Source: Candidatus Woesebacteria bacterium
GTDB lineage: Bacteria > Patescibacteriota > Microgenomatia > UBA1400 > PJMF01
DNA length: 64,000 bases
Direction of reading: 5' to 3'
NCBI GenBank assembly: GCA_050123235.1
Contig: JASFHL010000001.1
Span: 20,651-84,650, forward strand
Position 1 is the first letter of the stretch. Each line of letters starts with the position of its first letter. The position numbers were made by a program, and so were the translations under genes. Positions 3,441-61,684 of this stretch are shown here, piece after piece. Below the pieces are notes generated by a model, which saw nothing but the letters and a program-made list of their open reading frames with translations, was not told the origin of the DNA and searched no databases.

Positions 3441-5120
3441 ATGTTAAAGAAATCAAAAAATAGATCAGTTGAAGAATACGGAATAGTGGAATCTATCAAT
3501 CATCCTTTATTGTTAGTTAAGGGTTTGCCTAATGCAAGGAGTGGTGATACTTTGATTTTTGAAAATGGTGCTATGGGACAAGTTCTAAACTTCAGCCATG
3601 CAGCTGAAGTGATGCTTTTTTCAGAAGAACTTGTTAAGGTGGGCAGCCGCTGTTTAAACACCGGTCAAACACTATCATTGCATGTCTCTACTGATCTTTT
3701 GGGAGCGGTAGTTGATCCCTTAGGTAAGTCTTTGGAAGAAAAAAAACCGGTTAAAAGTTTATCCAAAGATTGTTTTTTTAAATTAGCTAAATATGGAAAT
3801 TTGAATGACAGTGAATTCTTTGGTAAAAAACAGAGTTCCTTATTAAAGTTTGCTCGGAAAAGAGAGGCAGAAAAATCTAATAAGGCTTGTTATTTAGTTG
3901 ATAGCAAAGCTACTGCTTTAGAACAGAGGGCCCAATTAAAAGAACCTCTAGTGACAGCTAGTGCTATAGTAGATCTTTTGCTTCCCTTAGCTAAGGGTCA
4001 ACGCGAACTAGTAGTGGGAGATAGAAAAACTGGAAAGACTTCTTTTCTCTTAAATTTAGCTGAAAATCAAATCAGGGCTGGTGCAATAGTAATTTATGCT
4101 TTGATTGGCAAAAAAATGAGTGAAATCAAGGCAGTTAGACAGTATTTCATAGATAAGAAACTTAATCAAAAGATAGTGATTGTTGCTGCTGGAGCTAAGG
4201 CAGTGCCTAGTATTATTTATCTAACTCCTTTTAGTGCTATGACAATTGCTGAGTATTTTAGGGATCAGAGTAAGGATGTTTTATTGATTCTAGATGATTT
4301 ATCTACTCATGCTAAATTTTATAGAGAGATCTCTTTGCTAGCTAGGAAATTTCCAGGAAGAGATTCCTATCCTGGTGATATTTTCTATACTCATGCTCGT
4401 TTGTTGGAACGGGCTGGGAATTTCAAATCAACTGTACCAGCGAAAAAGGAAAATAGCGGAGTTGGGCAGGCTGAACCTAAGATTGCTAAAGCTAAGAATT
4501 CTGCTACTCAGGCTTCAGACACTAAAATCAATCCAACAGTCAGTATCTCTTGTTTACCAGTAGCCAACACAATAGAAAGTGATTTAACTGATTATATTGT
4601 ATCTAATTTGATTAGTATTACTGACGGTCATTTGTTATTTGATGCAGCAATGGTGAGAAGTGGTCAACATCCGGCCATAAATGTTGCCTTATCAGTAACT
4701 AGGGTCGGTAAACAAGTTCAAAGCCAAGTGGTGAGAGAGTTGAACACTAAATTGTTAGCCTTTATGAATAAATATAGAAAAAGTATGAGTTTTTCTCATT
4801 TTGGAGCTGAGTTAACTGCCGAAACTCAATTTTTGATTAACAAAGGTGAAGCTTTTGAAGCTTTTTTACTTCAAAAACCTGAGGAGATTATTCCTTTGCC
4901 AGTTCAAGTAGTAGTGGCAGCATTGCTTTGGTTTGATTATTTGCTTGATTTTGAAGCTGAACAGGTAAGGCAGTTACGTCAGCAGTTAACTAAGACTTAT
5001 CTCCAAAATCAAGAGATGAGAGACTTGTTTGATAATTTATTTAGACTGGAGAATTTAGATGAATTAAAAACAGAGTTAATGCCCCTCAAGGAGAAAATAA
5101 AAGAAATATTAAAAAACTAG
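3441..5120 (+). CDS. atpA: F-type ATP synthase alpha subunit (divergent, ~40-aa insertion)
   Basis: 559 aa. Walker A GDRKTGKT (alpha-type GDRQTGKT). Strong collinear similarity to F1-alpha around QRELVVGDRKTGKTSFLLNLAENQ ... LILDDLSTHAKFYREISLLARKFPGRDSYPGDIFYTHARLLERA. Confidence 0.85.
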   Translation: MLKKSKNRSVEEYGIVESINHPLLLVKGLPNARSGDTLIFENGAMGQVLNFSHAAEVMLFSEELVKVGSRCLNTGQTLSLHVSTDLLGAVVDPLGKSLEEKKPVKSLSKDCFFKLAKYGNLNDSEFFGKKQSSLLKFARKREAEKSNKACYLVDSKATALEQRAQLKEPLVTASAIVDLLLPLAKGQRELVVGDRKTGKTSFLLNLAENQIRAGAIVIYALIGKKMSEIKAVRQYFIDKKLNQKIVIVAAGAKAVPSIIYLTPFSAMTIAEYFRDQSKDVLLILDDLSTHAKFYREISLLARKFPGRDSYPGDIFYTHARLLERAGNFKSTVPAKKENSGVGQAEPKIAKAKNSATQASDTKINPTVSISCLPVANTIESDLTDYIVSNLISITDGHLLFDAAMVRSGQHPAINVALSVTRVGKQVQSQVVRELNTKLLAFMNKYRKSMSFSHFGAELTAETQFLINKGEAFEAFLLQKPEEIIPLPVQVVVAALLWFDYLLDFEAEQVRQLRQQLTKTYLQNQEMRDLFDNLFRLENLDELKTELMPLKEKIKEILKN

Positions 5121-19349: not shown

Positions 19350-20114
19350 ATGAAAAAGATTGACTCACAGGCACTTCTTTTTGGCATGAAGTTTTTTAGC
19401 AGTTCTAAGGAGGATTTGCTAAAGCTTTTGAAGAAGGGTTTAAAACAAGCTAAAACTCAGTATATCTTCACTCCCAACCCAGAACAGCTTGTGCAGTCTT
19501 CCAAAGATAAATCATTTCTTAAAGCTTTACAAGAAGCAAATATTTTAATTCCTGATGGAGTTGGTTTGGTATGGGCTTCTATAATTCTAGCTTCGCTGGG
19601 CAAAGCCAAAAAAATTAAGGAAAGAATCACCGGAATTGATTTGGCAATGGATCTATTAGAAGTAGCACAAGAGAAGAAACTGAAGGTATTACTGGTAGGG
19701 GGTAGGGGGTATGACAAAAAAGAGCTGCAGGCTAAGTTTGGAGATAATATTTTTTGGACAGAGGCTTACCAAAATGTTAAGCAAGTAAAAGAGCAAGAAG
19801 AACAAGCTTTGCAAAAATCAATCAAAAAACTTAGGCCAGCAATAGTGCTGGTGGCTTTTGGAGCAGCTGAGCAAGAAAAGTGGGTAGTAAAGCATAAGCG
19901 CTTACTAGAGAGTTCAGGAGCTAAGATTGTGATGGTAGTAGGCGGGGCTTTTGATGTGATTTTAGGCAAGATTCCCAGAGCACCAAAGCTGATGAGGTTT
20001 TTAGGGCTAGAGTGGCTTTATCGCCTGATCAAGGAGCCCTGGCGATGGAAAAGACAACTCAGGTTGTTAGATTTTTTGGAGTTGCTGACGAAAGAGATCA
20101 AGAAGAAGAAATAA
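19350..20114 (+). CDS. WecB/TagA/CpsF-family glycosyltransferase
   Basis: 254 aa. LVGGRGYDKKELQAKF ... LVAFGAAEQEKWV ... GLEWLYRLIKEPWRWKR matches the family hallmark GLEWLYRL..EP.R. Confidence 0.8.
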   Translation: MKKIDSQALLFGMKFFSSSKEDLLKLLKKGLKQAKTQYIFTPNPEQLVQSSKDKSFLKALQEANILIPDGVGLVWASIILASLGKAKKIKERITGIDLAMDLLEVAQEKKLKVLLVGGRGYDKKELQAKFGDNIFWTEAYQNVKQVKEQEEQALQKSIKKLRPAIVLVAFGAAEQEKWVVKHKRLLESSGAKIVMVVGGAFDVILGKIPRAPKLMRFLGLEWLYRLIKEPWRWKRQLRLLDFLELLTKEIKKKK

Positions 20115-20130
20115 ATTAATCAGGTATTCA

Positions 20131-20291
20131 AAACTCCCTACAAATAAATATTAGAGTAGTTCGCTACTACATGATATCTTTTTTAAAAGTACAAGGCTCA
20201 CTTGGTGAAGCTCGGTAGTAAGTCGATTGCTAGCTCAAGACCGAACCAGACCTCGCTTCAAAACTCTAATATTTATTTGTAGGGAGTTTTT
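20131..20291. repeat. Inverted-repeat-bounded intergenic element, copy 2 of conserved-core family (candidate structured ncRNA)
   Basis: Perfect 28-bp inverted repeat 20131-20158 / 20264-20291 (aaaactccctacaaataaatattagagt). It encloses a 105-nt core homologous to 859-971. Located between two convergent genes. Confidence 0.45.
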
Positions 20292-20319
20292 ATCAATTTA
20301 GTTTACTTATTTCTCTTCT

Positions 20320-20646
20320 TTACTCTTCGTCATCAGGGTTGATGCCTAGTAACCAGAGGACTGCTTCTTTTTTGTAGCGTCTATCACCTCTAGAGTTGAT
20401 TCTGATAGCAGGTAGTTTACCTCTCTTACCCCAACGTTTGATAGTTAGGGGAGAGACCCTGAGTAAGTCAGCTACTTCTCTGACTGTGAGTAGGTCAGGT
20501 AAGTTGCTTATATCTAGTTTAGCTGCGTCATTAGCCCGACCAGTTTTTTTCTTATCACTATCTGATAAAACACTGGCAGCTTGTTGGTCAGAAGCTTGAG
20601 AGTTGGTTAAGGGTTTGTTGGAGCTGGATTGGGTGTCTGCCATCAT
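20320..20646 (-). CDS. Excisionase-family (MerR-superfamily HTH_17) DNA-binding protein with S/Q-rich N-terminus
   Basis: 108 aa. LLTVREVADLLRVSPLTIKRWGKRGKLPAIRINSRGDRRYKKEAV is the classic excisionase/AlpA-type helix-turn-helix. Confidence 0.6.
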   Translation of the reverse strand: MMADTQSSSNKPLTNSQASDQQAASVLSDSDKKKTGRANDAAKLDISNLPDLLTVREVADLLRVSPLTIKRWGKRGKLPAIRINSRGDRRYKKEAVLWLLGINPDDEE

Positions 20647-20905
20647 TGCAGGGGCCTTTCTGAAAAATACTTGTTAATTGGCTTAAAATAATTAAATATG
20701 TCAAAGTTAAACTTTAACTATATTAAAAGTAGCAGAGTAGTGAAAACTAGGTCAAGGGGCAATTTTGATGTATGAAGCTCGGTGTTTGATTTTGACAGTA
20801 TCCTATAATATTGTTATAATATAAAGTTATCTATGTTCCGCGATGCCACCTAGGGTGCACTGCGCGCCTGCGCGGAGGTGGCGAGAAGTTTTGCACAGGA
20901 GGTGC

Positions 20906-21085
20906 ATGATGGATTGGAAGAAGAAGCTTCAAAATTTTTTGGATAGACTCGCATGGGGAGATGAGAGTCCTCCTCCTGCTTGGGAAATGAGGCCCTGGAT
21001 ACCAAGCTGGTTCGATGTGGTCACCAGCTATGGGTGGCCACTCTTAGTACTAGCAATTGTACTATTGCTACTGCGGGGTTGCTGA
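20906..21085 (+). CDS. Small GC-rich hypothetical membrane peptide (W/P-rich, C-terminal TM)
   Basis: ~59 aa (MMDWKKKLQNFLDRLAWGDESPPPAWEMRPWIPSWFDVVTSYGWPLLVLAIVLLLLRGC). Consensus SD aggaggtg 4-6 nt before the ATG. Followed by a strong intrinsic terminator. Local GC is far above the window average. Confidence 0.4.
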   Translation: MMDWKKKLQNFLDRLAWGDESPPPAWEMRPWIPSWFDVVTSYGWPLLVLAIVLLLLRGC

Positions 21086-21097
21086 ATCTCCCACAAA

Positions 21098-21142
21098 AAC
21101 CCCGCCCTCGGCCTAATGCCGGCGGCGGGGAGTCGTTTTTTA
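21098..21142 (+). terminator. Rho-independent terminator of the small GC-rich gene
   Basis: Stem ccccgcc (21100-21106) / ggcgggg (21124-21130) with an inner cggc/gccg stem, followed by gtcgtttttt. Confidence 0.6.
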
Positions 21143-21190
21143 TAAGCCTGTTTTTTAATAGAAAAAGTTATTTTGTGCTAGTTGATTAAA

Positions 21191-21314
21191 TTATATCTGC
21201 TGGAATAATACTCTAAAAAGCGAACCCTTGACGGTAGCCAGAGTTTCTGCAAAGCAGAAGAACATTCTGGCGAGAGTGGGTGAGTCTTTGAGAATATTAT
21301 TCCAGCAGATATAA
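21191..21314. repeat. Inverted-repeat-bounded intergenic element (third such element, distinct core)
   Basis: 20-bp perfect inverted repeat 21191-21210 / 21295-21314 (ttatatctgctggaataata), with partial extension. 84-nt GC-richer interior holds nested hairpins (gccaga...tctggc; ctgcaaagcag). Confidence 0.4.
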
Positions 21315-21468
21315 ATAGAGATATTCAAACTAGCAGCAAAAGTTATTTTTATACTTTTCGTCTTTTTTTCCGTTATTTTTAATTTTAAAAGTAGTTATTC
21401 ACATTTTTATCTTATAATTATTTTAATTAGATCTTATATTATTTTTAGTTTAAAAAGTTGTGGAAAAG

Positions 21469-21512
21469 TCAAAAAAACTCTCTTGACTAAAAAGCCAAGA
21501 GAGTTTTAATTT
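21469..21512 (-). terminator. Bidirectional intrinsic terminator downstream of rplL
   Basis: Perfect 10-bp stem aactctcttg / caagagagtt with 10-nt loop, flanked by an A-run on one side and a T-run on the other. Confidence 0.55.
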
Positions 21513-21538
21513 TTAAATCTATTTTTAAATTCAAAACT

Positions 21539-21988
21539 TTATTTTAACTCAACCACACAGCCTGCAGCCTCCAATTCTTTTTTGGCGGCTTCGGCATCTT
21601 CCTTTTTGGCAGCTTCTAAGACAGTCTTAGGGGCTGATTCTACAAAAGCCTTAGCTTCACCTAGCCCAAGTTCAGTCTTGAGTTTTCTGACAGCTTTAAT
21701 GGCTGCAATTTTATTTGAGCCGGCATCTTTGAGTACCACATCAAATTCAGTCTTTTCTTCAGCAGCAGCGGCTTCAGCGCCAGCGGCAGCTGGCATGGCA
21801 CCCATCATCATTGGCGCAGCAGCACTGACTCCGAAAGTATCTTCAAGAGCGCTGACCAATTCTGAAACTTCCATTAAAGAGAGTTCCTTGACTGCGTCAA
21901 CAATTTTTTGTAATTTAGCAGGAAGTTTTTTAGTTTCTTTTTTTTCTTCCTTGGTGGCTTCTGCAGTCTTTTTTTTGTCATCTGACAT
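21539..21988 (-). CDS. rplL: 50S ribosomal protein L7/L12
   Basis: 149 aa. Ala/Met-rich hinge and a C-terminal domain ending [37 protein letters not shown]. Confidence 0.9.
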
Positions 21989-22078
21989 AAGATCCTTTTT
22001 TTAATCTGAGTCTAAATAACCTCTGGGCCGATTTTATTTTAAGATTCAGATTTTTATTTTTTACAAGTTAATAATTTT

Positions 22079-22603
22079 TTATCCTTTATCTACAATTGCC
22101 TTGAGTACTCCAACTACATCCCTTTGTCCGGCCTTGAGCACATTGACTAGGCCATAACTTGGGCCTTGGATTCTGTTAATTAAAGTGGCAATTAATTCGT
22201 TTTTACTTGGTAACTTACTTAAAGATTCAGCTTCTTCTGGAGATAAAATTTTATCTTCTACACCTTCTTTGCCAGCAGACATAATGCCTTGCTTGATTTC
22301 TAGTTTGTCTGCTTCTTTATGAAATTCAAACACTTTTTTGAGAGCAGAGACTTCATCTTCATAAGAGAAGAGTACAGCATTCATGCCTGTTAGAGAATCG
22401 GTCAATTTGCCTTTACCTACAGCAATATCCATTAGGGTGTTTTTGCAAACATAAATTTCTCCGCCAGCTTCTTTGACAGCATTTCTCAAGTCAACTTGTT
22501 CTTTACTGCTGGTGCCAGAATAATCAAAAACTAGCACTGATTTAGCTCGAGCAAGTTTTTCTTTTAAAGTTTCAACTTGACTAAGATTGTGTTTGTTTGG
22601 CAT
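22079..22603 (-). CDS. rplJ: 50S ribosomal protein L10
   Basis: 174 aa. Immediately upstream of rplL on the same strand. N-terminal [34 protein letters not shown] is typical of L10. Confidence 0.85.
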
Positions 22604-28299: not shown

Positions 28300-28989
28300 T
28301 TACTCAATCGCTACTTTTACACTAGGGCTCATACTGGCCGCGAGAGACATTTTGCTAATTTTGCCTTTTAAAGCTTTTATCAAAGCTTGAACATTTTCTA
28401 GCAAAGCTTTGCTGTCCATCGAGACTTTACCAACAGTGACATGCATAAGTGGTGCTTTTTTTTCTGTTTTGATAGTCATTTTGCCAGCTGCTAATTCTTT
28501 TTTCTTCAGTTCTGGATTGGGAGTGAGAGTGCCATTTTTAGGATTGGGCATCAAACCTTTTGGCCCAAGAATTTTGGCAAATTTGGTAATTTTGGGCATA
28601 TCTTGAGGAGTTGCTAAGAGTACGTCAAAGTCAATTTGATTATCGTTGATTTTTTTTAACACTGCTGGGGAGACAATGGCCACTTTAACAGTTTGGCCAG
28701 TAGCGTGAGGAAAGTTTAGTTCTGCCTTTTCTCCTGGTTTTTTAACTACTAAAGCAGCAGTGATAGTGCCATCAAATTTAGAATAAGAGAGTTTTTTGAC
28801 CAATTCTACAGCTGTGGCCAGATCATAAGCTTTACTTTTATCTATCTGACTACGAGTTGCTTGATATTTTTTACTACGGATTTTTTTCTTGATAACTTTT
28901 TTTTTCTCGACTTTTTTTTCTTCACTTGCTTTTACAATCTTAACTTTAGTATTTGAGCTGGACATGTCAACGTTTTTTTTGCTTCCCAT
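28300..28989 (-). CDS. rplA: 50S ribosomal protein L1
   Basis: 229 aa. LGPKGLMPNPKNGT and the lysine-rich N-terminus. Confidence 0.9.
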   Translation of the reverse strand: MGSKKNVDMSSSNTKVKIVKASEEKKVEKKKVIKKKIRSKKYQATRSQIDKSKAYDLATAVELVKKLSYSKFDGTITAALVVKKPGEKAELNFPHATGQTVKVAIVSPAVLKKINDNQIDFDVLLATPQDMPKITKFAKILGPKGLMPNPKNGTLTPNPELKKKELAAGKMTIKTEKKAPLMHVTVGKVSMDSKALLENVQALIKALKGKISKMSLAASMSPSVKVAIE

Positions 28990-29000
28990 ATTATCCTTTT

Positions 29001-29423
29001 TTAAGCTATTTCCACTCCCATACTTTTTGCTGTACCTGTAACAATTTTCATTGCCTGATCAAGATCATTAGTGTTAAGATCAGGGAGTTTTTTTTTTGCA
29101 ATTTCTTTTAATTGTGCAGAACTAAGTTTCCCAACTACATCAGTTTTTGTTTTTTGACTACCCTTTTTTAATTTTAGAGTTTGTTTAATCATAGCTGATA
29201 CTGGAGGCAACTTTAGTTCAAAAGTAAAAGATCGATCTTGATAAACTGTAATCTCAGCTGGAATGATTTGCCCTCTTTTATCTTTGCTTTTATCATTATA
29301 TTGTTTTAGAAAATCCATCATGTTGATTCCAGCTTGGCCCAGAATAGGTCCAACAGGAGGAGCTGGTGTAGCAGAACCAGCCGGTAGATTGAGTTTTAGA
29401 ATTTGTTTAACTTTTTTTGCCAT
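29001..29423 (-). CDS. rplK: 50S ribosomal protein L11
   Basis: 140 aa. MAKKVKQILKLNLPAGSATPAPPVGPILGQAGINMMDFLKQYN. Confidence 0.9.
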   Translation of the reverse strand: MAKKVKQILKLNLPAGSATPAPPVGPILGQAGINMMDFLKQYNDKSKDKRGQIIPAEITVYQDRSFTFELKLPPVSAMIKQTLKLKKGSQKTKTDVVGKLSSAQLKEIAKKKLPDLNTNDLDQAMKIVTGTAKSMGVEIA

Positions 29424-29484
29424 AAATAATGTTTTCTTTATTTTTCAGATTGTTATTCTAACACATAAGTCTTGCTTTTGTTCT

Positions 29485-30132
29485 CTAGACTTTAGTGACT
29501 TGTAAAAAGTCTAATTCCACAGGTGTTTCTCGGCCAAAGATGCTAATTAGCACTTCGATTTTGCCTTTTTCTTCGTCAATCGCTTTCACAGTGCCTAAGA
29601 AATCATTAAATGGTCCATCAGTGATTTTAACAGCTTCACCCTCACTGAAGTCTGATTTGTATTGAGGGGTAGCTTGAGCCATATATTTTTGAATAGCCTT
29701 AACTTCATGTTTTGGCAATGGGGTAGGGCGACTACTCATACCCACAAAGCCAGTCACCCCTTGAGTAGTTCTGACAGCCAACCAAGAATCATCAGCCATT
29801 TCCATTTGAATCAGCATATATCCAGGGAATATTTTTTCATTGACAGTTTTGCGTTGGCCTTTTTTAATTTGGATTTTTTCTTTGGTAGGAATCAAAACAG
29901 ACAGAATCTTATGAGTAAGATTAAGAGTTTCTGCTCTTTGTTTAAGCGTCTCAGCGACCTTTTTTTCGTGTCCTGAGTAGGCGTGGACTACATACCACTT
30001 GGCTTTAGGATTTTTAGCCTTGGAAATGATTACTAAGTTGGGATTTTCAATTTCTACTTCCTGGACTTCAGGAGGGCTGATTGCTTGATCAGTCACTTTA
30101 TCTGAGACTTGGGTTTTTGCTGTTTTTGCCAT
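29485..30132 (-). CDS. nusG: Transcription antitermination factor NusG (with ~45-aa N-terminal extension)
   Basis: 215 aa. NGN domain KWYVVHAYSGHEKKV. C-terminal KOW GEAVKITDGPFNDFLGTVKAIDEEKGKIEVLISIFGRETPVELDFLQV. Position between secE and rplK is canonical. Confidence 0.85.
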   Translation of the reverse strand: MAKTAKTQVSDKVTDQAISPPEVQEVEIENPNLVIISKAKNPKAKWYVVHAYSGHEKKVAETLKQRAETLNLTHKILSVLIPTKEKIQIKKGQRKTVNEKIFPGYMLIQMEMADDSWLAVRTTQGVTGFVGMSSRPTPLPKHEVKAIQKYMAQATPQYKSDFSEGEAVKITDGPFNDFLGTVKAIDEEKGKIEVLISIFGRETPVELDFLQVTKV

Positions 30133-30457: not shown

Positions 30458-33358
30458 CTATCCCTGGGGGGGTTTTACTCCCTTACTCTTCATTCTTTCC
30501 ATCATACTGGAAGCACCGTCACCTCCAGGCATATTACTAGCGGTACTTTGTCCTGGTTGAGCTGGGGGAGTACCTCCTGGGATACTTTTTGTTTGTTGGG
30601 CTTGAGGCCTTGTTATTGGGCCAGCTTGTTCTGGGGTAGCGCTGGTTTTAACTTGCGATCGAGCGCCCATTCCTACTCCTATTTTTTGGCCAGTTGAGCT
30701 TGGAGGTCTTTGGGTACTTTGGCTAGGTCTAGTACCTGTTAAAGGTTGAGCCTTTTTAATTTTATTTGGATCAATAGCCTTGGCTTTACCTTTTCTTGAT
30801 AATAGGAAAAGAAGCAAGAGTAAGAAGAAAAGACCAACAGCTCCAGTCGTTAATAGAACATTGGTGGAGATCCCTCTATCTTCCAAGTATTCTTTGAGAG
30901 CTTCTAAGGCTGTTTGCTCAGCAATTAACTCTTCTTCGGTTTCAACGCCAGTGCTGATAGGTTTATGAGTGATCTCTGGTGAAGGGGAAAGATCCAGAGT
31001 TACCTCAGCGGTTGGAGAAGCTTCTTCATCTTCAGTGCTACTGCCTTTACTGAGAGCAAGACATTCATCATTATCAGGGTTACTTGGATGACGGCACTGA
31101 TTATTGATGCACTCTAGAGCATAAGCACATTCACTATCATAAGTGCAAGATGAATTACAGCTGCCTGCAATCACATAATCAAGATAGCGAGTTTGATAGA
31201 TTACATTGCTAGTGGCTGGTTCTCGACAATAAATATCTTCTAGATTTTCTGGATTACGACAGCGGTTCCACCAGCATTCATAACCAGCAGCACATTCACT
31301 GGTATCAGCACAATATTCGTTACAGCTTCTATTCAACCCTTGGTCTGGAGGGTTAGCACAAATTTCGCTATTAGGATTGCTTGGTAAACGACAGCGACCG
31401 GAATAACAGGCTAGATTGGCATGACAGTCATGATTGCTGGAACAAGTTTCGTTGCAGAGTCGACCAGTATAAGCACCTTGGCCAGTACATCTTGGCATAT
31501 AAAAGACTGCATAATCACTGTGGCCATCTCGATAATGTAGTCTAATGTAATAAACAGTATCTGGTGAAAAATAAAAAGCATTTTGATCAGCATTGTTCCA
31601 GTAAAAGCCACTTCCTTGAGTAACTAGATATTCATAATATGAATAAGTATCATTCACGACATTTTTATGAGCAAATTCTCTGAAGTCAAGGTAAGGGCTG
31701 ATGTTAATCCAGTCTACATCTGGATATCGATTGCGATCCCAAATAATATAGAGAGATTCTCCAGCTGAATCAGCATACCAACAACTTTCATAGTTATAGA
31801 GGAAAAAATCAGTATTTGTTTGACAATATTCCCATTCATGAGGTCTTGCTGCTGACTCATACCACCAACAATTATCTGCTTGGTTTTCAGTACAAGTCCT
31901 ACTACGGATGTTGTTGTAACATTCACTCCAATCGCTGCAGCTATAGAGATCATATTGGCACTGAGGCATACAAGGTTCTGATTGCTCATAGCTGGCTGGG
32001 GAGCAAGTATCACTACTATTGGCAGTTAAGGTATATCGGAATTGCTGATAACCATCAATACATTCACTAATGGCATTGCGGTCATATTGGCAATATTGTT
32101 GATTTTGGCAATCATAAGTAAAGTCTAGATAAGTCCAGTTACTAAGGTCAGGGGTACAGGCATCGGCAGCGCTAACTGCTACTCTTAGATACCAAGTACC
32201 GTCAAGGACGTTATTGAAGTAAACCACTGGTTCAGTCACTCGATTATTGATGACATCATTGGGATTGTCAGCGTTGATTGCCTGGACTAGATACTCGCTG
32301 GCATTAGCTGTGGCTGGCCAATTAACAGCAAAGTTCATTGTTTGTCCATCGCCACTACAAGTAATGCTGTTGCTATAAAGGTAGAAATTACTTGGAGCAA
32401 CACAACTGGCTAAAGTTGGTTCTGTAGGTATAGGAGTGGCTGGTTGTTCTGGAAGACAAACTCCATTACTACAGCCGTGTTCACAAATACGTCTGTCATA
32501 ACTGATGCGTTCACCATCTAGGCAGAACCATTCATTAATATTGGCACCTTGGTCAACTGGATTAAGAGTATTCCAGTCATTAAAGCAAAAATCAGTACAA
32601 TTTCCACTAGGACAGCTATTTTCAAAACTGTTGGCGCCATTGCCAGTAACAGTACCTAATACTTCATAATTGCGGCCACCATCAGAATCAGTACATTCAA
32701 GCTGATCCACTACATAATATGACCAATCATCTGGCATCACTAATTCATCACTTACATCACCATGTCTGAGGGCATAAGAATGGATACCTTCTGAGAAGAG
32801 GAAATCAAACTGAGCATTACCAGAAGTTTGTGGATTAAATTCTAGTCTAGCAATGGTCCTGTAATCAGTACTTATAAAAGGAATATTAGGGTCATTGCTA
32901 ATAATCATTAGTTGGACAGTATAACAATCCCTACATTGAGCAGGATTGATAATTTGTTGAACAATAGTTAGACCAGAGTTAGGAGCTGATTGAAAATTAA
33001 GCCCATTGGGAAAAATTTGACCTTGATAATCACCAAGATCACCTTGGACTAAGAATTGAAGTTGAACACCATCAATGGCTGCACCATGAGTATTAACTTG
33101 TATGTCTAAACTGTTATTTTCTTCGCTTAGAAATTGATAGCCTGATACGGGATAGGTACTGATACTGACAGCTCCTTCTTGATTCCAGGCTGCTTTTCTA
33201 ATATCTTGGCTCGTTTGTAAATTTTTTTGTAAAAGGACAGAACTAATCGCTAAAAAAATGAATAGACAGATAGTAAAAAGACCAGCAAAAATAGATAGCT
33301 TTTGATTAAAGCTCATTTTTTTAAATTTTTGATAGTATTGTTTTGCTTTTTTTTTCAT
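30458..33358 (-). CDS. Large Cys-rich surface protein with N-terminal signal anchor, C-terminal TM and P/Q-rich cytoplasmic tail
   Basis: 966 aa. >60 Cys in repeated C-x-C contexts (CSDWSECYNNIRSRTCTEN, CSSNHDCHANLACYSGRCRLP, CADTSECAAGYECWWNRCRNP). TM LTTGAVGLFFLLLLLFLL near the C-terminus, then a P/Q/G/S-rich tail. Confidence 0.6.
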   Translation of the reverse strand: MKKKAKQYYQKFKKMSFNQKLSIFAGLFTICLFIFLAISSVLLQKNLQTSQDIRKAAWNQEGAVSISTYPVSGYQFLSEENNSLDIQVNTHGAAIDGVQLQFLVQGDLGDYQGQIFPNGLNFQSAPNSGLTIVQQIINPAQCRDCYTVQLMIISNDPNIPFISTDYRTIARLEFNPQTSGNAQFDFLFSEGIHSYALRHGDVSDELVMPDDWSYYVVDQLECTDSDGGRNYEVLGTVTGNGANSFENSCPSGNCTDFCFNDWNTLNPVDQGANINEWFCLDGERISYDRRICEHGCSNGVCLPEQPATPIPTEPTLASCVAPSNFYLYSNSITCSGDGQTMNFAVNWPATANASEYLVQAINADNPNDVINNRVTEPVVYFNNVLDGTWYLRVAVSAADACTPDLSNWTYLDFTYDCQNQQYCQYDRNAISECIDGYQQFRYTLTANSSDTCSPASYEQSEPCMPQCQYDLYSCSDWSECYNNIRSRTCTENQADNCWWYESAARPHEWEYCQTNTDFFLYNYESCWYADSAGESLYIIWDRNRYPDVDWINISPYLDFREFAHKNVVNDTYSYYEYLVTQGSGFYWNNADQNAFYFSPDTVYYIRLHYRDGHSDYAVFYMPRCTGQGAYTGRLCNETCSSNHDCHANLACYSGRCRLPSNPNSEICANPPDQGLNRSCNEYCADTSECAAGYECWWNRCRNPENLEDIYCREPATSNVIYQTRYLDYVIAGSCNSSCTYDSECAYALECINNQCRHPSNPDNDECLALSKGSSTEDEEASPTAEVTLDLSPSPEITHKPISTGVETEEELIAEQTALEALKEYLEDRGISTNVLLTTGAVGLFFLLLLLFLLSRKGKAKAIDPNKIKKAQPLTGTRPSQSTQRPPSSTGQKIGVGMGARSQVKTSATPEQAGPITRPQAQQTKSIPGGTPPAQPGQSTASNMPGGDGASSMMERMKSKGVKPPQG

Positions 33359-33406: not shown

Positions 33407-34549
33407 TTAAGGAGGTGGAGTGTAAGTAGGTGAAATACAACTCTGTCCCCATTGATTGACTAATGCTGAATAATCCCAGATATTAACCGTAGCATCTGCT
33501 TCTCCATTTGGCCCGCTAATATCTGCGGCTGGATCATTAGAAAAAAATCTAGCTACCAAAAAAGCATAGTCATCTTGGTTTACCACTCGATCACCTGTGA
33601 AGTCAGCAGTAAGATAATCACAATCTACTTCTTCACCAACAGTAATTTGAACAGCAGCAGTAGTCTCAGCACCCCATTCGTCAGTGACGGTTAGAGTGAC
33701 ATTGTAAGTACCACTTCCGCGGTAGGTGTGGTCAGGATTTTGTACAGTATTTTCTAAACCATCATCATAGTGCCATAAATAAGTAATATCATCACCATCA
33801 GGATCATAAGAGCCATCACTGCTAAATTGGACAGTTAAAGGGGCGCTGCCAGAAGTAGGACTGGCGGAAATTTGTACCACAGGAGCCTGATTTCCGGCTG
33901 GTGGAGTGATACCACTGACAGTAATTCTGACAGTATCAGTGTCACTTTCTCCATCAGGATCAGTGACAGTAAGAGTTACATTATATACTCCAGCTTCGGC
34001 AAAGGTGATATTAGCATTTTGACGATAAAGGATAGTGCCATTATCAAAATCCCAAGCAAAAGTTATTCGATCGTCATCTGGGTCATGTGAACCAGCTCCA
34101 TTAAAATTGACAGCTAATGGGGCAGCCCCAGAAGTAGGATTAGCTATAGCCACTGCCACTGGGGGACGATTTTCTATAGGAGGGGGAGTGCCTCCTGGTG
34201 CTGTAGGACGGACGGTAGGAGTGGCTGAGCCTGCTGTAGGACTAACGCTAGGACTCGGCTCCTGGGTAGGACTGGGGCTGGCTGAGCCTGCTGTGGGGCG
34301 AGGAGTAGGGCTGGTTGGAATTGGAGGAGGAGTTGCAGTAGGAACCACCTGAGCCATTTTTCTTAATTCTTGTCTTTTTTGAACTAAATTTACTACAGCT
34401 ATCATTCCTAAGACTAAAGGTAGTAGTAAAAATATGGCAGATAAGCTTCTGATAGGGGTTCTATATTTTTTTGAGTAACGAAGAAAGTCTTTTTTGAAAG
34501 ATTTTACAAAATTTTTAGAATTAAAAGACTTTGGCATTGTTTTTTGCAC
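33407..34549 (-). CDS. Membrane-anchored PKD-domain protein with Pro/Thr linker and dockerin-like C-terminal repeats
   Basis: 380 aa. Two PKD-like units (APLAVNFNGAGSHDPDDDRITFAWDFDNG ... YNVTLTVTDPDGESDTDTVRITV; APLTVQFSSDGSYDPDGDDITYLWHYDDG ... YNVTLTVTDEWG). C-terminal DFTGDRVVNQDDYAFLV / DISGPNGEADATVNIWDYSALV resemble dockerin Ca-binding repeats. Confidence 0.65.
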   Translation of the reverse strand: MQKTMPKSFNSKNFVKSFKKDFLRYSKKYRTPIRSLSAIFLLLPLVLGMIAVVNLVQKRQELRKMAQVVPTATPPPIPTSPTPRPTAGSASPSPTQEPSPSVSPTAGSATPTVRPTAPGGTPPPIENRPPVAVAIANPTSGAAPLAVNFNGAGSHDPDDDRITFAWDFDNGTILYRQNANITFAEAGVYNVTLTVTDPDGESDTDTVRITVSGITPPAGNQAPVVQISASPTSGSAPLTVQFSSDGSYDPDGDDITYLWHYDDGLENTVQNPDHTYRGSGTYNVTLTVTDEWGAETTAAVQITVGEEVDCDYLTADFTGDRVVNQDDYAFLVARFFSNDPAADISGPNGEADATVNIWDYSALVNQWGQSCISPTYTPPP

Positions 34550-39022: not shown

Positions 39023-39194
39023 TTTTAATAATTAATGAATCAAAGTAGATAAATCACTATAGTGATGATGCCTTCTTTATAAAGGAGGTGGATTTTTTGA
39101 TTCAGAATATTTTTTCTTACCCCTTAGCGACTTTTTATTTCGTCTGGTAAAATACTTCAGTAAGTGAATTTTAATATTTACTACAGATAGTCAC

Positions 39195-39272: not shown

Positions 39273-41180
39273 ATGATGAACATTACTAACACTATTCAGA
39301 ATTTAATCCAGCAGGCTCTGACAGAGTTAGGTTTTACAGTGGAGCAGAGTGAGATCACGCTTGAGCATCCAGCTGACCTTAAATTTGGTGATTATAGCTC
39401 TAATGTGGCGATGGTAAATTACAACCGGTGGGTCCAACAGCTTTCTAATAAAAAAATGCAGTGGCTGGACCGTAATAAGACAAATTCAGATCAGTATAAC
39501 GGTCCCAGAGCCTTAGCCCAAGCTATTGCTGATAAAATCCAGGCGCAACTTGCCAAAGATAAGAAAACAATGATAGCAGAAGTATCTGTAGCAGGGCCCG
39601 GCTTCATTAATTTCAAACTTAGTGACAGTTTTTTCCTGGCTGCCATGCAGCAGCTTATTAAACAAAAGGCAGATCTAATTCCTCTATTGAACAAAAATAA
39701 ACGAGTGATGGTGGAATTTACTGATCCAAATCCTTTCAAAGAGTTTCATATTGGTCATTTATATAGCAATATTGTGGGAGAGTCTTTAGCTAGATTATTT
39801 GAAATCACAGGGGCTAAAGTAAAAAGAGTTTGTTATCAAGGTGATGTGGGTATGCATGTAGCTAAGTCAGTTTGGGGAATGTTGAAAAAAATGGATCAAG
39901 CAAAGTTGGAGCTTCAGGATCTGGAAAAATGGCCGCTTAATAAGAGAGTGAATTTTTTGGGTCAAAGCTATGCACTAGGTGCTAATGAATACAAAGGAGA
40001 TGAAAAGACCCAAGAAAGAATAAAGAATCTAAACTACTTAATATATATCTGTGGTCAAGAGAATTTAGAAGAATTAAATAACTGGCAAGCACAAGTTGAT
40101 TACAAGCAATATCTCAAAGAGAGTGGTTTTGATTACCAAGAAGTTAAGCGTGTCTACCAAGTAGGCAGAGCTTGGAGCCTGGAATACTTTGAGAGTATTT
40201 ACCAGAGATTGGGTACTAAGTTTGATGACTACTTTTTTGAGAGCTTGGTGGGAGAGTTAGGAATTAAAGTAGTTCGCGAAAATATCAAAAATAAAATTTT
40301 TCAAAAAAGCAAAGGCGCTATTATTTTTCCAGGAGAAAAATATGCTTTACATAATCGAGTGTTTATCAACTCATTGGGCTTACCTACTTATGAGGCCAAA
40401 GAATTGGGCTTAGCTATAGAGAAGAATAAAAGGTGGCCCTATGATTTATCTATTCCTGTTACTGGTAATGAAATTGATGAATATTTCAAAGTTTTATTAA
40501 CTGCCTTAAGGCAAGTGAAACCAGAGCTGGCCAAAAAAACTGTTCACATCTCTCACGGCATGGTTAGACTACCAGAGGGTAAAATGTCTAGTAGGACTGG
40601 CAAGGTTCTAACTGGTGAATGGATGCTGGATAAAGCAAAGGATTTGGTGAAAAAAATTCTTGATGAAACAAGGACAGAAGTCCCAAGTGCTGAAAAAGAA
40701 GATGTGGCAGAGAAGGTGGGCCAGGCAGCTATCAAGTTTGCTTTACTTTCAACAGATTTGGGTAGAAACATTGCTTTTGCTTTTGATACTTCTTTAAAGT
40801 TTAGTGGCTTTTCCGGTCCTTACCTGCAATATACTTATGCCAGGTGTCAAAGTGTTTTGAGAAATGCTAAGTTAAAATCAGAGACAAAACTAGCTTCTAA
40901 GTTTAGTGATATTAAGCAAGAAGAAAAAGCTTTGCTAAGAGTGATCTATCAGTTTCCTGAGGTGGTATTAAAGGCAGCTAGCAACTTTATTCCTCATCAT
41001 CTTGCTACTTACCTTTTTGAATTAGCTCAATCTTATAGCAGTTTTTATAGTAAACATCAGATCATTAAAGCAACCACTCAAGAACAAAAGCTCTTTAGAC
41101 TGCAATTGACTCAGGCAACAGCTTTGATTTTGAAAAAAGGTTTGGGTTTATTGGGTATCCAAGTAGTAGAGAGGATGTAA
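39273..41180 (+). CDS. argS: Arginyl-tRNA synthetase
   Basis: 635 aa. Class I HIGH motif (FKEFHIGHLYSNIVGESLARLFE). KMSSRTG (KMSKS-type). DALR-like anticodon-binding C-terminus. Confidence 0.9.
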   Translation: MMNITNTIQNLIQQALTELGFTVEQSEITLEHPADLKFGDYSSNVAMVNYNRWVQQLSNKKMQWLDRNKTNSDQYNGPRALAQAIADKIQAQLAKDKKTMIAEVSVAGPGFINFKLSDSFFLAAMQQLIKQKADLIPLLNKNKRVMVEFTDPNPFKEFHIGHLYSNIVGESLARLFEITGAKVKRVCYQGDVGMHVAKSVWGMLKKMDQAKLELQDLEKWPLNKRVNFLGQSYALGANEYKGDEKTQERIKNLNYLIYICGQENLEELNNWQAQVDYKQYLKESGFDYQEVKRVYQVGRAWSLEYFESIYQRLGTKFDDYFFESLVGELGIKVVRENIKNKIFQKSKGAIIFPGEKYALHNRVFINSLGLPTYEAKELGLAIEKNKRWPYDLSIPVTGNEIDEYFKVLLTALRQVKPELAKKTVHISHGMVRLPEGKMSSRTGKVLTGEWMLDKAKDLVKKILDETRTEVPSAEKEDVAEKVGQAAIKFALLSTDLGRNIAFAFDTSLKFSGFSGPYLQYTYARCQSVLRNAKLKSETKLASKFSDIKQEEKALLRVIYQFPEVVLKAASNFIPHHLATYLFELAQSYSSFYSKHQIIKATTQEQKLFRLQLTQATALILKKGLGLLGIQVVERM

Positions 41181-41344
41181 AGATATTGACTGCAAATAAA
41201 TCTTAGACCGTTAAAGCGATGTCTGGTTAGGATTGCATTAGCAGTCAATATTTTTTAGATTTCTACACTGGATCAGGAATTTAACAATTTTTATGATAAA
41301 ATATCTCTCTTGAGTAAAAAATTTTAAAAGAATAAGGAAAAATC

Positions 41345-61520: not shown

Positions 61521-61684
61521 TAACCTGAATCTCGAAATAGTCCCTTGGCTAATTTCACTCTATTTGGCAATTTTAGCTATTTTCCTCTTCCTCAAGTAGC
61601 TACGGCTACTATTGTCATCTGAAAATGCTAAAATTACTCAAATATATTATAATTACCTCAAGGTTTATTTCGAGATTCAGGTTA
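61521..61684. repeat. Inverted-repeat-bounded intergenic element (fourth such element)
   Basis: Perfect 19-bp inverted repeat taacctgaatctcgaaata (61521-39) / tatttcgagattcaggtta (61666-84) enclosing 126 nt. It exactly fills the gap between the histidine kinase stop and the next gene's ATG. Confidence 0.4.

Follow-up and report, generated by a model that had tools for sequence, protein, structure and literature searches.

A putative small orphan gene cassette inserted upstream of a conserved BldC-like regulator gene next to rplL in a Woesebacteria genome

Background

How does an AT-rich genome come to carry, just downstream of its rplL gene, a short GC-rich gene with consensus expression signals, and does the adjacent regulator gene belong to the same foreign piece of DNA? 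The question is raised by a 64-kb stretch of the genome of a Candidatus Woesebacteria bacterium (contig JASFHL010000001.1 of assembly GCA_050123235.1, positions 20,651 to 84,650; hereafter "the window", GC content 0.358 overall), in which an open reading frame (ORF) of 59 codons on the plus strand lies between rplL and a minus-strand gene that encodes a protein with a helix-turn-helix (HTH) domain. The original prediction, made from the letters of the window, regarded the whole region of about 900 bp, HTH gene included, as foreign in appearance, and proposed either a small toxin-like or membrane-active protein or the remnant of a mobile element that occupies the usual place of rpoB.

Alignment with related loci divides the region differently, namely into a conserved backbone and one lineage-specific insert of ~520 bp. 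As far as can be judged from such comparisons, the unit around the small ORF is a small orphan gene cassette, inserted in the control region of a conserved BldC-like regulator. The small ORF most likely encodes a tail-anchored membrane peptide, a model-based reading to which we assign a probability of roughly 0.55.

Results

The nearest relative of the window by nucleotide identity of rplL (78.8%), numbered L093 among the related loci, can be aligned with it through rplL, the proximal rplL terminator (positionally equivalent to the terminator of L093) and a conserved non-coding block termed block 2, and then again from ~20797 through the promoter block of the HTH gene and the gene itself. Between these two alignable parts the window has ~520 extra bases, roughly 20798-21320, which contain the -10 box of a strong promoter, a leader, the small ORF, a GC-rich hairpin and a long hairpin termed IR2. 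The insert sequence is missing from all 90-odd related loci, where the two conserved blocks are nearly adjacent: the gap between them is 18-51 nt in 21 loci, 88-158 nt in 10 (so that 31 of the 32 relatives fall within 18-158 nt) and 327 nt in L043, versus 626 nt in the window. Since the same sequence is found in an independent Logan assembly, the insert is not an assembly artefact or a chimera. The features of the locus are as follows:

19350-20114, plus strand: tagA/WecG
20130-20290: hairpin element of 161 nt, flanked by tagA and the HTH gene, whose stop codons converge there
20320-20646, minus strand: HTH gene, 108 aa, BldC-like, excisionase fold
~20697-20766, minus strand: conserved promoter block of the HTH gene (nhmmer profile, 51 related loci)
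20792-20820, plus strand: perfect sigma-70 promoter of the small gene, with an extended -10 (TGn)
20827-20905, plus strand: GC-rich 5' leader of ~78 nt
20906-21085, plus strand: small ORF of 59 codons (58 from the second ATG)
21100-21130: GC-rich hairpin CCCCGCC...GGCGGGG, an intrinsic terminator of the rplL type
21139-21174, minus strand: relic resembling the rplL stop codon and 3' untranslated region (UTR)
21191-21314: IR2, a near-perfect hairpin of 134 nt at the insert edge nearer to rplL
21393-21467, minus strand: conserved block 2 upstream of the HTH gene
21474-21507, minus strand: proximal rplL terminator, a 15-bp stem followed by U7
21539-21988, minus strand: rplL, encoding ribosomal protein L7/L12
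22079-22603, minus strand: rplJ, which precedes rplL

Judging by gene order, the HTH gene is a core gene of the Microgenomates that follows rplL, and neither foreign DNA nor debris of a mobile element. Eighty Microgenomates loci were fetched from species-representative genomes, and in 67 of them rplJ-rplL lies upstream of the HTH gene on the same strand, while tagA (on the opposite strand), murL and murD usually come after it, giving the conserved order rplJ-rplL-HTH-(tagA)-murL-murD. Because of this synteny the HTH gene has to be separated from the ~900-bp stretch thought to be foreign. The place downstream of rplL does not belong to rpoB either: none of the related Microgenomates loci examined has rpoB directly after rplL, so nothing has displaced it in the window. 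The neighbours of the HTH gene in the window (rplJL, tagA, murL, murD, pfkB and ahcY) include no integrase or transposase, no att-like duplication was found near it, and its codon score and GC content at third codon positions (GC3) are much nearer to those of the native genes than are the values of the small ORF.

The HTH protein consists of a variable, low-complexity N-terminal part of ~45 residues and a winged-HTH domain at residues 50-102, with no coiled-coil dimerisation domain or effector domain. It scores above the Pfam cut-offs for HTH_17 (PF12728; 40.7 bits, cut-off 27) and MerR and above that of the "excisionase family" model TIGR01764 (34.6 bits, cut-off 28.8), and it also matches PHROG excisionase families. 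The assignment to excisionase/AlpA-type HTH proteins thus stands at the level of these models; kinship with Xis or AlpA does not follow, the best structural relative being BldC. The top NCBIfam model is HTH_BldC (NF033787; E 1.2e-11), and the closest solved structures are the BldC chains 6AMK and 6AMA (E 2e-8), residues 50-102 being aligned to BldC residues 12-63 with ~50% identity. We describe the protein as BldC-like and not as a member of the curated BldC subfamily, because it reaches 44.3 bits against the curated cut-off of 77 bits. Homology searches returned 6663 homologues, the best 120 of which are 65-100% identical to it.

The structures 6AMK and 6AMA are complexes with DNA of Streptomyces BldC, a MerR-like regulator that consists of the DNA-binding domain only, and that has been reported to bind DNA direct repeats (PMC5859096). 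The Woesebacteria protein resembles it in being small, devoid of coiled-coil and effector domains, chromosomally encoded and vertically conserved, and in having direct repeats, to which it might bind as a head-to-tail multimer in the manner of the BldC family, upstream of the promoter of its own gene. It differs in its N-terminal extension, in coming from another phylum, and in the fixed position of its gene after rplL. With the excisionases of phages and of integrative and conjugative elements and with the AlpA-type regulators it shares the winged-HTH fold family, but the gene has no integrase partner, att sites or prophage context, and its synteny is with ribosomal and murein genes.

Both conserved blocks lie about 100-300 nt upstream of the HTH gene across the Microgenomates (loci L003-L093). 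The promoter block has the consensus ...TTGACCyAGTT-N-TCTGCTACTTT..., and its profile matches the window with E 1.1e-15. There, the HTH promoter is composed of the -35 box TTGACC (20755-20750), an 18-nt spacer that ends in TGn, and the -10 box TACTTT (~20731-20726), and the block extends past the -10 box into the start of the 5' UTR. Block 2, seen in 33 loci and matched in the window at 21467-21393 (E 3e-10), comprises two direct repeats (TTATAAGAT in the window, TTATAGGAT in the consensus) that are ~22 nt apart and are bordered by TTTTCCACA...TGTGAATAAC. It is a candidate operator that could serve the BldC-like regulator itself, or alternatively a second promoter.

The small-gene segment is set apart from the window by composition, as the original prediction had stated. 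The GC content of 20830-21145 is 0.535, which corresponds to the 99.9th percentile of 316-nt windows, and the 80-nt peak of 0.64 is matched by only 0.09% of 80-nt windows. The comparison of codon usage that had been advised makes the ORF an outlier as well, with GC3 of 0.48 versus 0.278 +/- 0.043 and a codon score of 0.098 versus 0.363 +/- 0.085 in the native genes. The foreign appearance is thus borne out for the small-gene segment, also by its absence from the relatives, and fails for the syntenic HTH gene.

The expression signals of the small gene are equally distinct. Its promoter (TTGACA, a 17-nt spacer, and TATAAT with TGn) is the sole 12/12 match to the sigma-70 consensus on either strand of the 64 kb; it is arranged back-to-back with the HTH promoter, the -35 boxes being 36 nt apart, and its -35 box may belong to the resident sequence and its -10 box to the insert. 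The 59-aa ORF is preceded by the predicted consensus Shine-Dalgarno (SD) sequence, AGGAGGTG at 20897-20904, which is separated by 1 nt from the first and by 4 nt from the second codon of the start ATGATG. For this genome such a sequence is exceptional, because none of the 53 native ORFs (at least 120 aa, plus the HTH gene) has even the 5-mer SD core. Weak 4-mers of the AGGA or GGAG type precede 10 of the 53, and the ribosomal-protein genes of the window use aaaGGAt before the start. The sole other intergenic consensus SD sequence (AAGGAGGTG) is located within 39083-39150, just upstream of the gene for tRNA-Thr (39195) and ahead of a hydrophobic mini-ORF of 17-20 codons (MIQNIFSYPLATFYFVW from a TTG start). 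In the leader of the small gene, GCCACCT (20845-20851) has two alternative pairing partners, a decoy, GGAGGTGGC (20874-20882), and the true SD sequence, which itself is placed in the loop of a TGCAC/GTGCA hairpin. The pairing of this anti-SD-like element suggests translational control, albeit without statistical support, as the fold of the leader (z -1.0 to -1.5) is not significant relative to shuffled sequences.

The product of 59 aa has the anticipated character of a Trp/Pro-rich peptide (6 Trp, 6 Pro) with a hydrophobic C-terminus, where the maximum Kyte-Doolittle mean over 17 residues is 2.14. AlphaFold, run on the single sequence, predicts helices at 3-16 and 35-58 with a mean pLDDT of 72, and of 84-86 in the C-terminal helix. 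An in-frame ATG upstream, at 20843, would give 80 aa, and it has no SD sequence. The frame of the ORF has the top coding score of the six, and an ATG-initiated ORF of this length with an equally hydrophobic 17-residue segment occurs in 0.13% of dinucleotide shuffles. Translation would be expected to yield the tryptic peptides LQNFLDR and LAWGDESPPPAWEMR. Neither tblastn with the peptide on all fetched related loci nor a look for similar SD-led small ORFs on the same strand in the spacers of the relatives gave any match; exact-product look-ups with the 80-, 59- and 58-aa versions returned no called gene product, and no toxin family in Pfam, NCBIfam or PHROGs matches the peptide. A toxin-like or membrane-active accessory function is our leading guess.

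The GC-rich hairpin that follows the ORF carries information on the origin of the insert. The original prediction described it as the terminator of the small gene; the hairpin and T-run are real, but the orientation is that of rplL. On the minus strand TTTTT directly abuts the stem (-30.3 kcal/mol), whereas on the plus strand the 5 nt AGTCG separate the stem from the T-run (U6 after AGUCG in the RNA; -24.9 kcal/mol), and it is the abutting T-run that defines the rplL direction as the canonical one. The hairpin can also serve the small gene, to judge by its plus-strand form. A hairpin of the type CCCCGYC...GRCGGGG followed by T5, of which the window has one copy, is found 27-44 nt after the rplL stop codon in 15 relatives. 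Moreover, the 36 nt that precede it in the rplL direction are identical at 27 of 36 positions to the true rplL 3' end (21545-21510); the alignment score of 18 compares with 10.0 +/- 1.6 in shuffles and is reached by 0.05% of them, and the layout, TAA-CTTT...-hairpin, is as in L042, L082 and L084. From these features the hairpin is an rplL-type terminator, and probably one that was brought in with the insert. Its interpretation as the ancestral rplL terminator in its original place was considered and dropped, as the alignment with L093 and the position of block 2 put it inside the insert. With other bidirectional intrinsic terminators it has in common a GC-rich stem that is bordered by an A-run and a U-run and that lies between convergent units; it differs from them in its rplL type and in the adjoining rplL 3' UTR relic, and in the 5-nt distance of the U-run on the strand of the small gene. 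Both the rplL-type terminator and the remnant of an rplL stop codon with its 3' UTR, which the insert still contains, point to the same locus in a GC-richer relative as the donor, and the insert probably came from there.

The spacer between rplL and the HTH gene is variable in the relatives, the distance from the end of rplL to the promoter block varying between 87 and 3135 nt (median 600). Its cargo includes PIN and Phd modules, i.e. type II toxin-antitoxin pairs (L040, L023 and L041), GNAT acetyltransferases, a methyltransferase, an ATP-grasp protein, a Cys-rich protein of 97 aa, small membrane proteins and unknowns, in loci such as L006, L008, L023, L024, L026, L040, L041, L046 and others. 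In L043, an independent small insertion (3550-3876) occupies the same spot between block 2 and the promoter block; it holds a 63-codon ORF in the orientation of the HTH gene, with a TGaTATAAT promoter, its own terminator and a GC content of 0.55 versus 0.41. Dozens of contigs with the clear gene order of the Microgenomates are titled "uncultured Pseudomonadales bacterium", Vitreimonas, Limisphaerales or Clostridia, and the organism labels of such records (L002, L007, L008, L013, L014 and others) look wrong.

The inverted-repeat element at 21191-21314 (IR2), noticed already in the original prediction, is present and single-copy in the window, with 37-nt arms of 84% complementarity and a folding energy of -59 kcal/mol (z -10.4). 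No target-site duplication is seen at IR2 and no transposase gene lies nearby, and neither IR2 nor the insert has the duplication and the multiple copies that characterise a miniature inverted-repeat transposable element (MITE) or the remnant of an insertion sequence. The element at 20130-20290 has perfect arms of 28 nt around an interior of 105 nt; with T-runs after the stem on either strand, it probably terminates transcription in both directions. It is one member of a hairpin family of 2.5 copies in the 64 kb (833-997, 20130-20290 and a third, shorter copy after argS at 41179-41255), with the core GCTCACTyGGTGAAGCTCGGTAGTA...TGCTAGCTCAA...ACCTCGCTTCAA. The two full copies are 81% identical over an 81-nt interior; their closing stems have unlike sequences, yet each remains paired. 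The family has no match in Rfam, and neither the 90-odd related loci nor IMG/VR contain it. Chance was judged to account for an 11-nt match, TGAAGCTCGGT, shared by the insert edge and the core of the family, as ~0.4 such matches are expected. Another long intergenic inverted repeat, with 64-nt arms that are 72% complementary and 18 perfect terminal pairs (AACCTGAATCTCGAAATA), lies at 61521-61684 between two plus-strand genes, and this genome seems to be given to long hairpins where genes end. IR2 and the element at 20130-20290 resemble REP- or MITE-like repeats in being long intergenic hairpins at gene ends; they differ from these in showing no visible target-site duplication and, as regards IR2, in the single copy. 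In the hairpin family it is the interior that is conserved and the arms that vary, contrary to the pattern of MITEs.

As to the wider surroundings, the nusG-rplK-rplA group (28300-30132) and the rplJ-rplL group (21539-22603) are ~5.7 kb apart, with pfkB, ahcY, two small ORFs and thrS on the plus strand between them, and the 64-kb window has neither rpoB nor rpoC. A minus-strand ORF of 966 aa (30458-33358), with no Pfam match, adjoins the gene of a PKD-domain protein (33407-34549), inside which the stretch of highest GC content in the window is found (34131-34366; 0.66).

Discussion

The backbone common to the Microgenomates consists of rplJ-rplL, the terminator, block 2, the promoter block and the BldC-like HTH gene, and in the genome studied here an insertion of ~520 bp parts block 2 from the promoter block. 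For the insert we propose the following scenario. It would derive from the homologous cargo region downstream of rplL in another, GC-richer Microgenomates genome, where the small gene would have been convergent with rplL, in the usual position of cargo. It would hold a self-contained small gene, whose extended -10 promoter would fire away from the HTH gene to give a transcript with a GC-rich leader of 78 nt, the SD sequence and the ORF of 58 or 59 codons, ending at the two-way GC hairpin. The product most likely would be a small tail-anchored membrane peptide, in which a Trp/Pro-rich linker joins an amphipathic helix at the N-terminus to a transmembrane helix at the C-terminus.

Several observations weigh against this scenario and must be set beside it. 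An ATG-initiated ORF of at least 58 aa occurs in 15% of dinucleotide shuffles, so that the length alone is ordinary; the codon score of the ORF is positive, yet far below that of the native genes, and gene callers left the ORF out in every assembly that has the sequence. For the peptide, HMMER over 1.8 billion representative proteins found no genuine homologue (the three hits are internally repetitive proteins), a word-index protein search found none, and scans of JGI metagenomes and IMG/VR viral contigs with degenerate patterns retrieved nothing related. Because no homologues were found, selection on the peptide cannot be demonstrated. Five hits of an exact 21-mer scan of metagenomes turned out to be chance matches to the SD sequence plus MMDW in unrelated genes, and an origin from a phage or plasmid was likewise rejected, blastn against INPHARED and PLSDB having given one 34-nt AT-rich chance hit. 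The edges of the insert lie in AT-rich sequence and are accurate to about +/-20 nt, and the idea of the donor locus is based on one AT-rich similarity of 36 nt and one type of hairpin.

The ORF might be incidental to a non-coding small RNA of ~310 nt transcribed from the strongest promoter of the window. In genomes rich in AT, islands of high GC content often represent structured RNAs, and the present segment is such an island, with the perfect consensus promoter typical of abundant RNAs, an ORF ignored by gene callers and atypical in codon usage, and a hairpin within the segment for the transmembrane helix that is followed by the terminator hairpin. The unit as a whole, however, has no family in Rfam 15, whether at the gathering score or at E <= 10 (over 20000-21600 there are only look-alikes of long hairpins, i.e. 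miRNA models, on the two hairpin elements); its fold, terminator included, exceeds that of shuffled sequences by little (z -2.3), the leader falls short as given above, and an SD sequence well spaced from two ATG codons together with a hydrophobic helix so rare in shuffles would be odd for a pure RNA. We therefore regard this alternative as rather unlikely. It also seems unlikely to us that the insert is inert debris of recombination, in which promoter, SD sequence and ORF have no present function and exist by coincidence or as leftovers. The orphan status of the unit, for which conservation could not be detected, the plain relic that it contains, the 3' end of rplL without rplL, and the high plasticity of the region across relatives would all suit debris; against it, a 12/12 promoter with TGn, an SD sequence, an open frame of 59 codons with a helix, and a terminator are all intact and in the right order and spacing, while decay would as a rule have damaged one or more of these elements.

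In a module akin to type I toxin-antitoxin systems, the peptide would be a membrane toxin whose mRNA hides its SD sequence in the leader, and a short antisense RNA predicted to start in IR2 (site at 21217-21190, minus strand) would end at the shared hairpin, overlapping the 3' end of the toxin mRNA. The txpA/RatA and bsrG/SR4 pairs of Bacillus are type I loci in which the RNAs converge on a shared terminator. The present locus resembles them as a lone intergenic gene for a small hydrophobic peptide (not more than 60 aa, with a predicted transmembrane helix) with a structured leader, whose minimum-free-energy fold pairs AUGCCACCU with AGGUGCAU, i.e. the SD sequence plus start codon, and with a two-way terminator and a promoter-like site (10/12, minus strand) ~50 nt beyond it; addiction-type cargo, the PIN and Phd modules mentioned above, also lodges in the spacer of relatives. 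It differs in that there is no match to toxin sequence families or to antitoxin RNA families of Rfam, and in that the helix is C-terminal, behind a polar part of 35 residues, an arrangement not seen in most type I toxins. Moreover, the structure of the leader is not significant, promoter-like sites are common in AT-rich DNA (9 found versus 3 expected), and the antisense RNA, itself hypothetical, would overlap the terminator only and not the coding region, so that a type I-like module appears rather doubtful. To go further and to see in the locus a laterally exchanged cassette for a new kind of tail-anchored type I-like toxin, co-regulated by the clade-wide BldC-like regulator, the operator of which (block 2) would have been displaced by the insertion, is a speculation at long odds. 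Least tenable is the mobile-element remnant of the original prediction, an excisionase with cargo that replaced rpoB after rplL over ~900 bp including the HTH gene. The match of the HTH protein to TIGR01764 and PHROG excisionase families and the inverted repeats flanking the area speak for it, but the position of the HTH gene after rplL in most relatives, together with conserved promoter blocks, the GC3 and codon score of that gene, which are much nearer to the native values, and the absence of nearby integrase, transposase or att-like duplication and of any relative with rpoB after rplL make it extremely improbable.

Conclusions

Read as an orphan cassette inserted next to a conserved regulator, the locus overturns nothing that is known; it is locally curious and ordinary overall. 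The small gene alone would be one more orphan small ORF in an uncultured bacterium. The Microgenomates, however, keep a BldC-like gene directly after rplJL, with two strongly conserved upstream blocks, and the DNA around these blocks is a hot spot, the cargo of which differs from lineage to lineage. The insert appears as cargo able to move between lineages together with pieces of the locus, and it brings expression signals, the consensus promoter and SD sequence, that the host's own genes do not use. A literature search on BldC-like proteins or type I toxin-antitoxin systems in the candidate phyla radiation (CPR)/Patescibacteria found no paper in the library searched. The locus offers a concrete and testable way to approach gene flow, and likewise a candidate global regulator, in organisms that have hardly any experimental genetics. 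If the cassette were indeed of the type I kind and co-regulated by the BldC-like protein, it would be the first module of a type I-like kind, and also the first regulon element to be defined, in these ultra-small bacteria.

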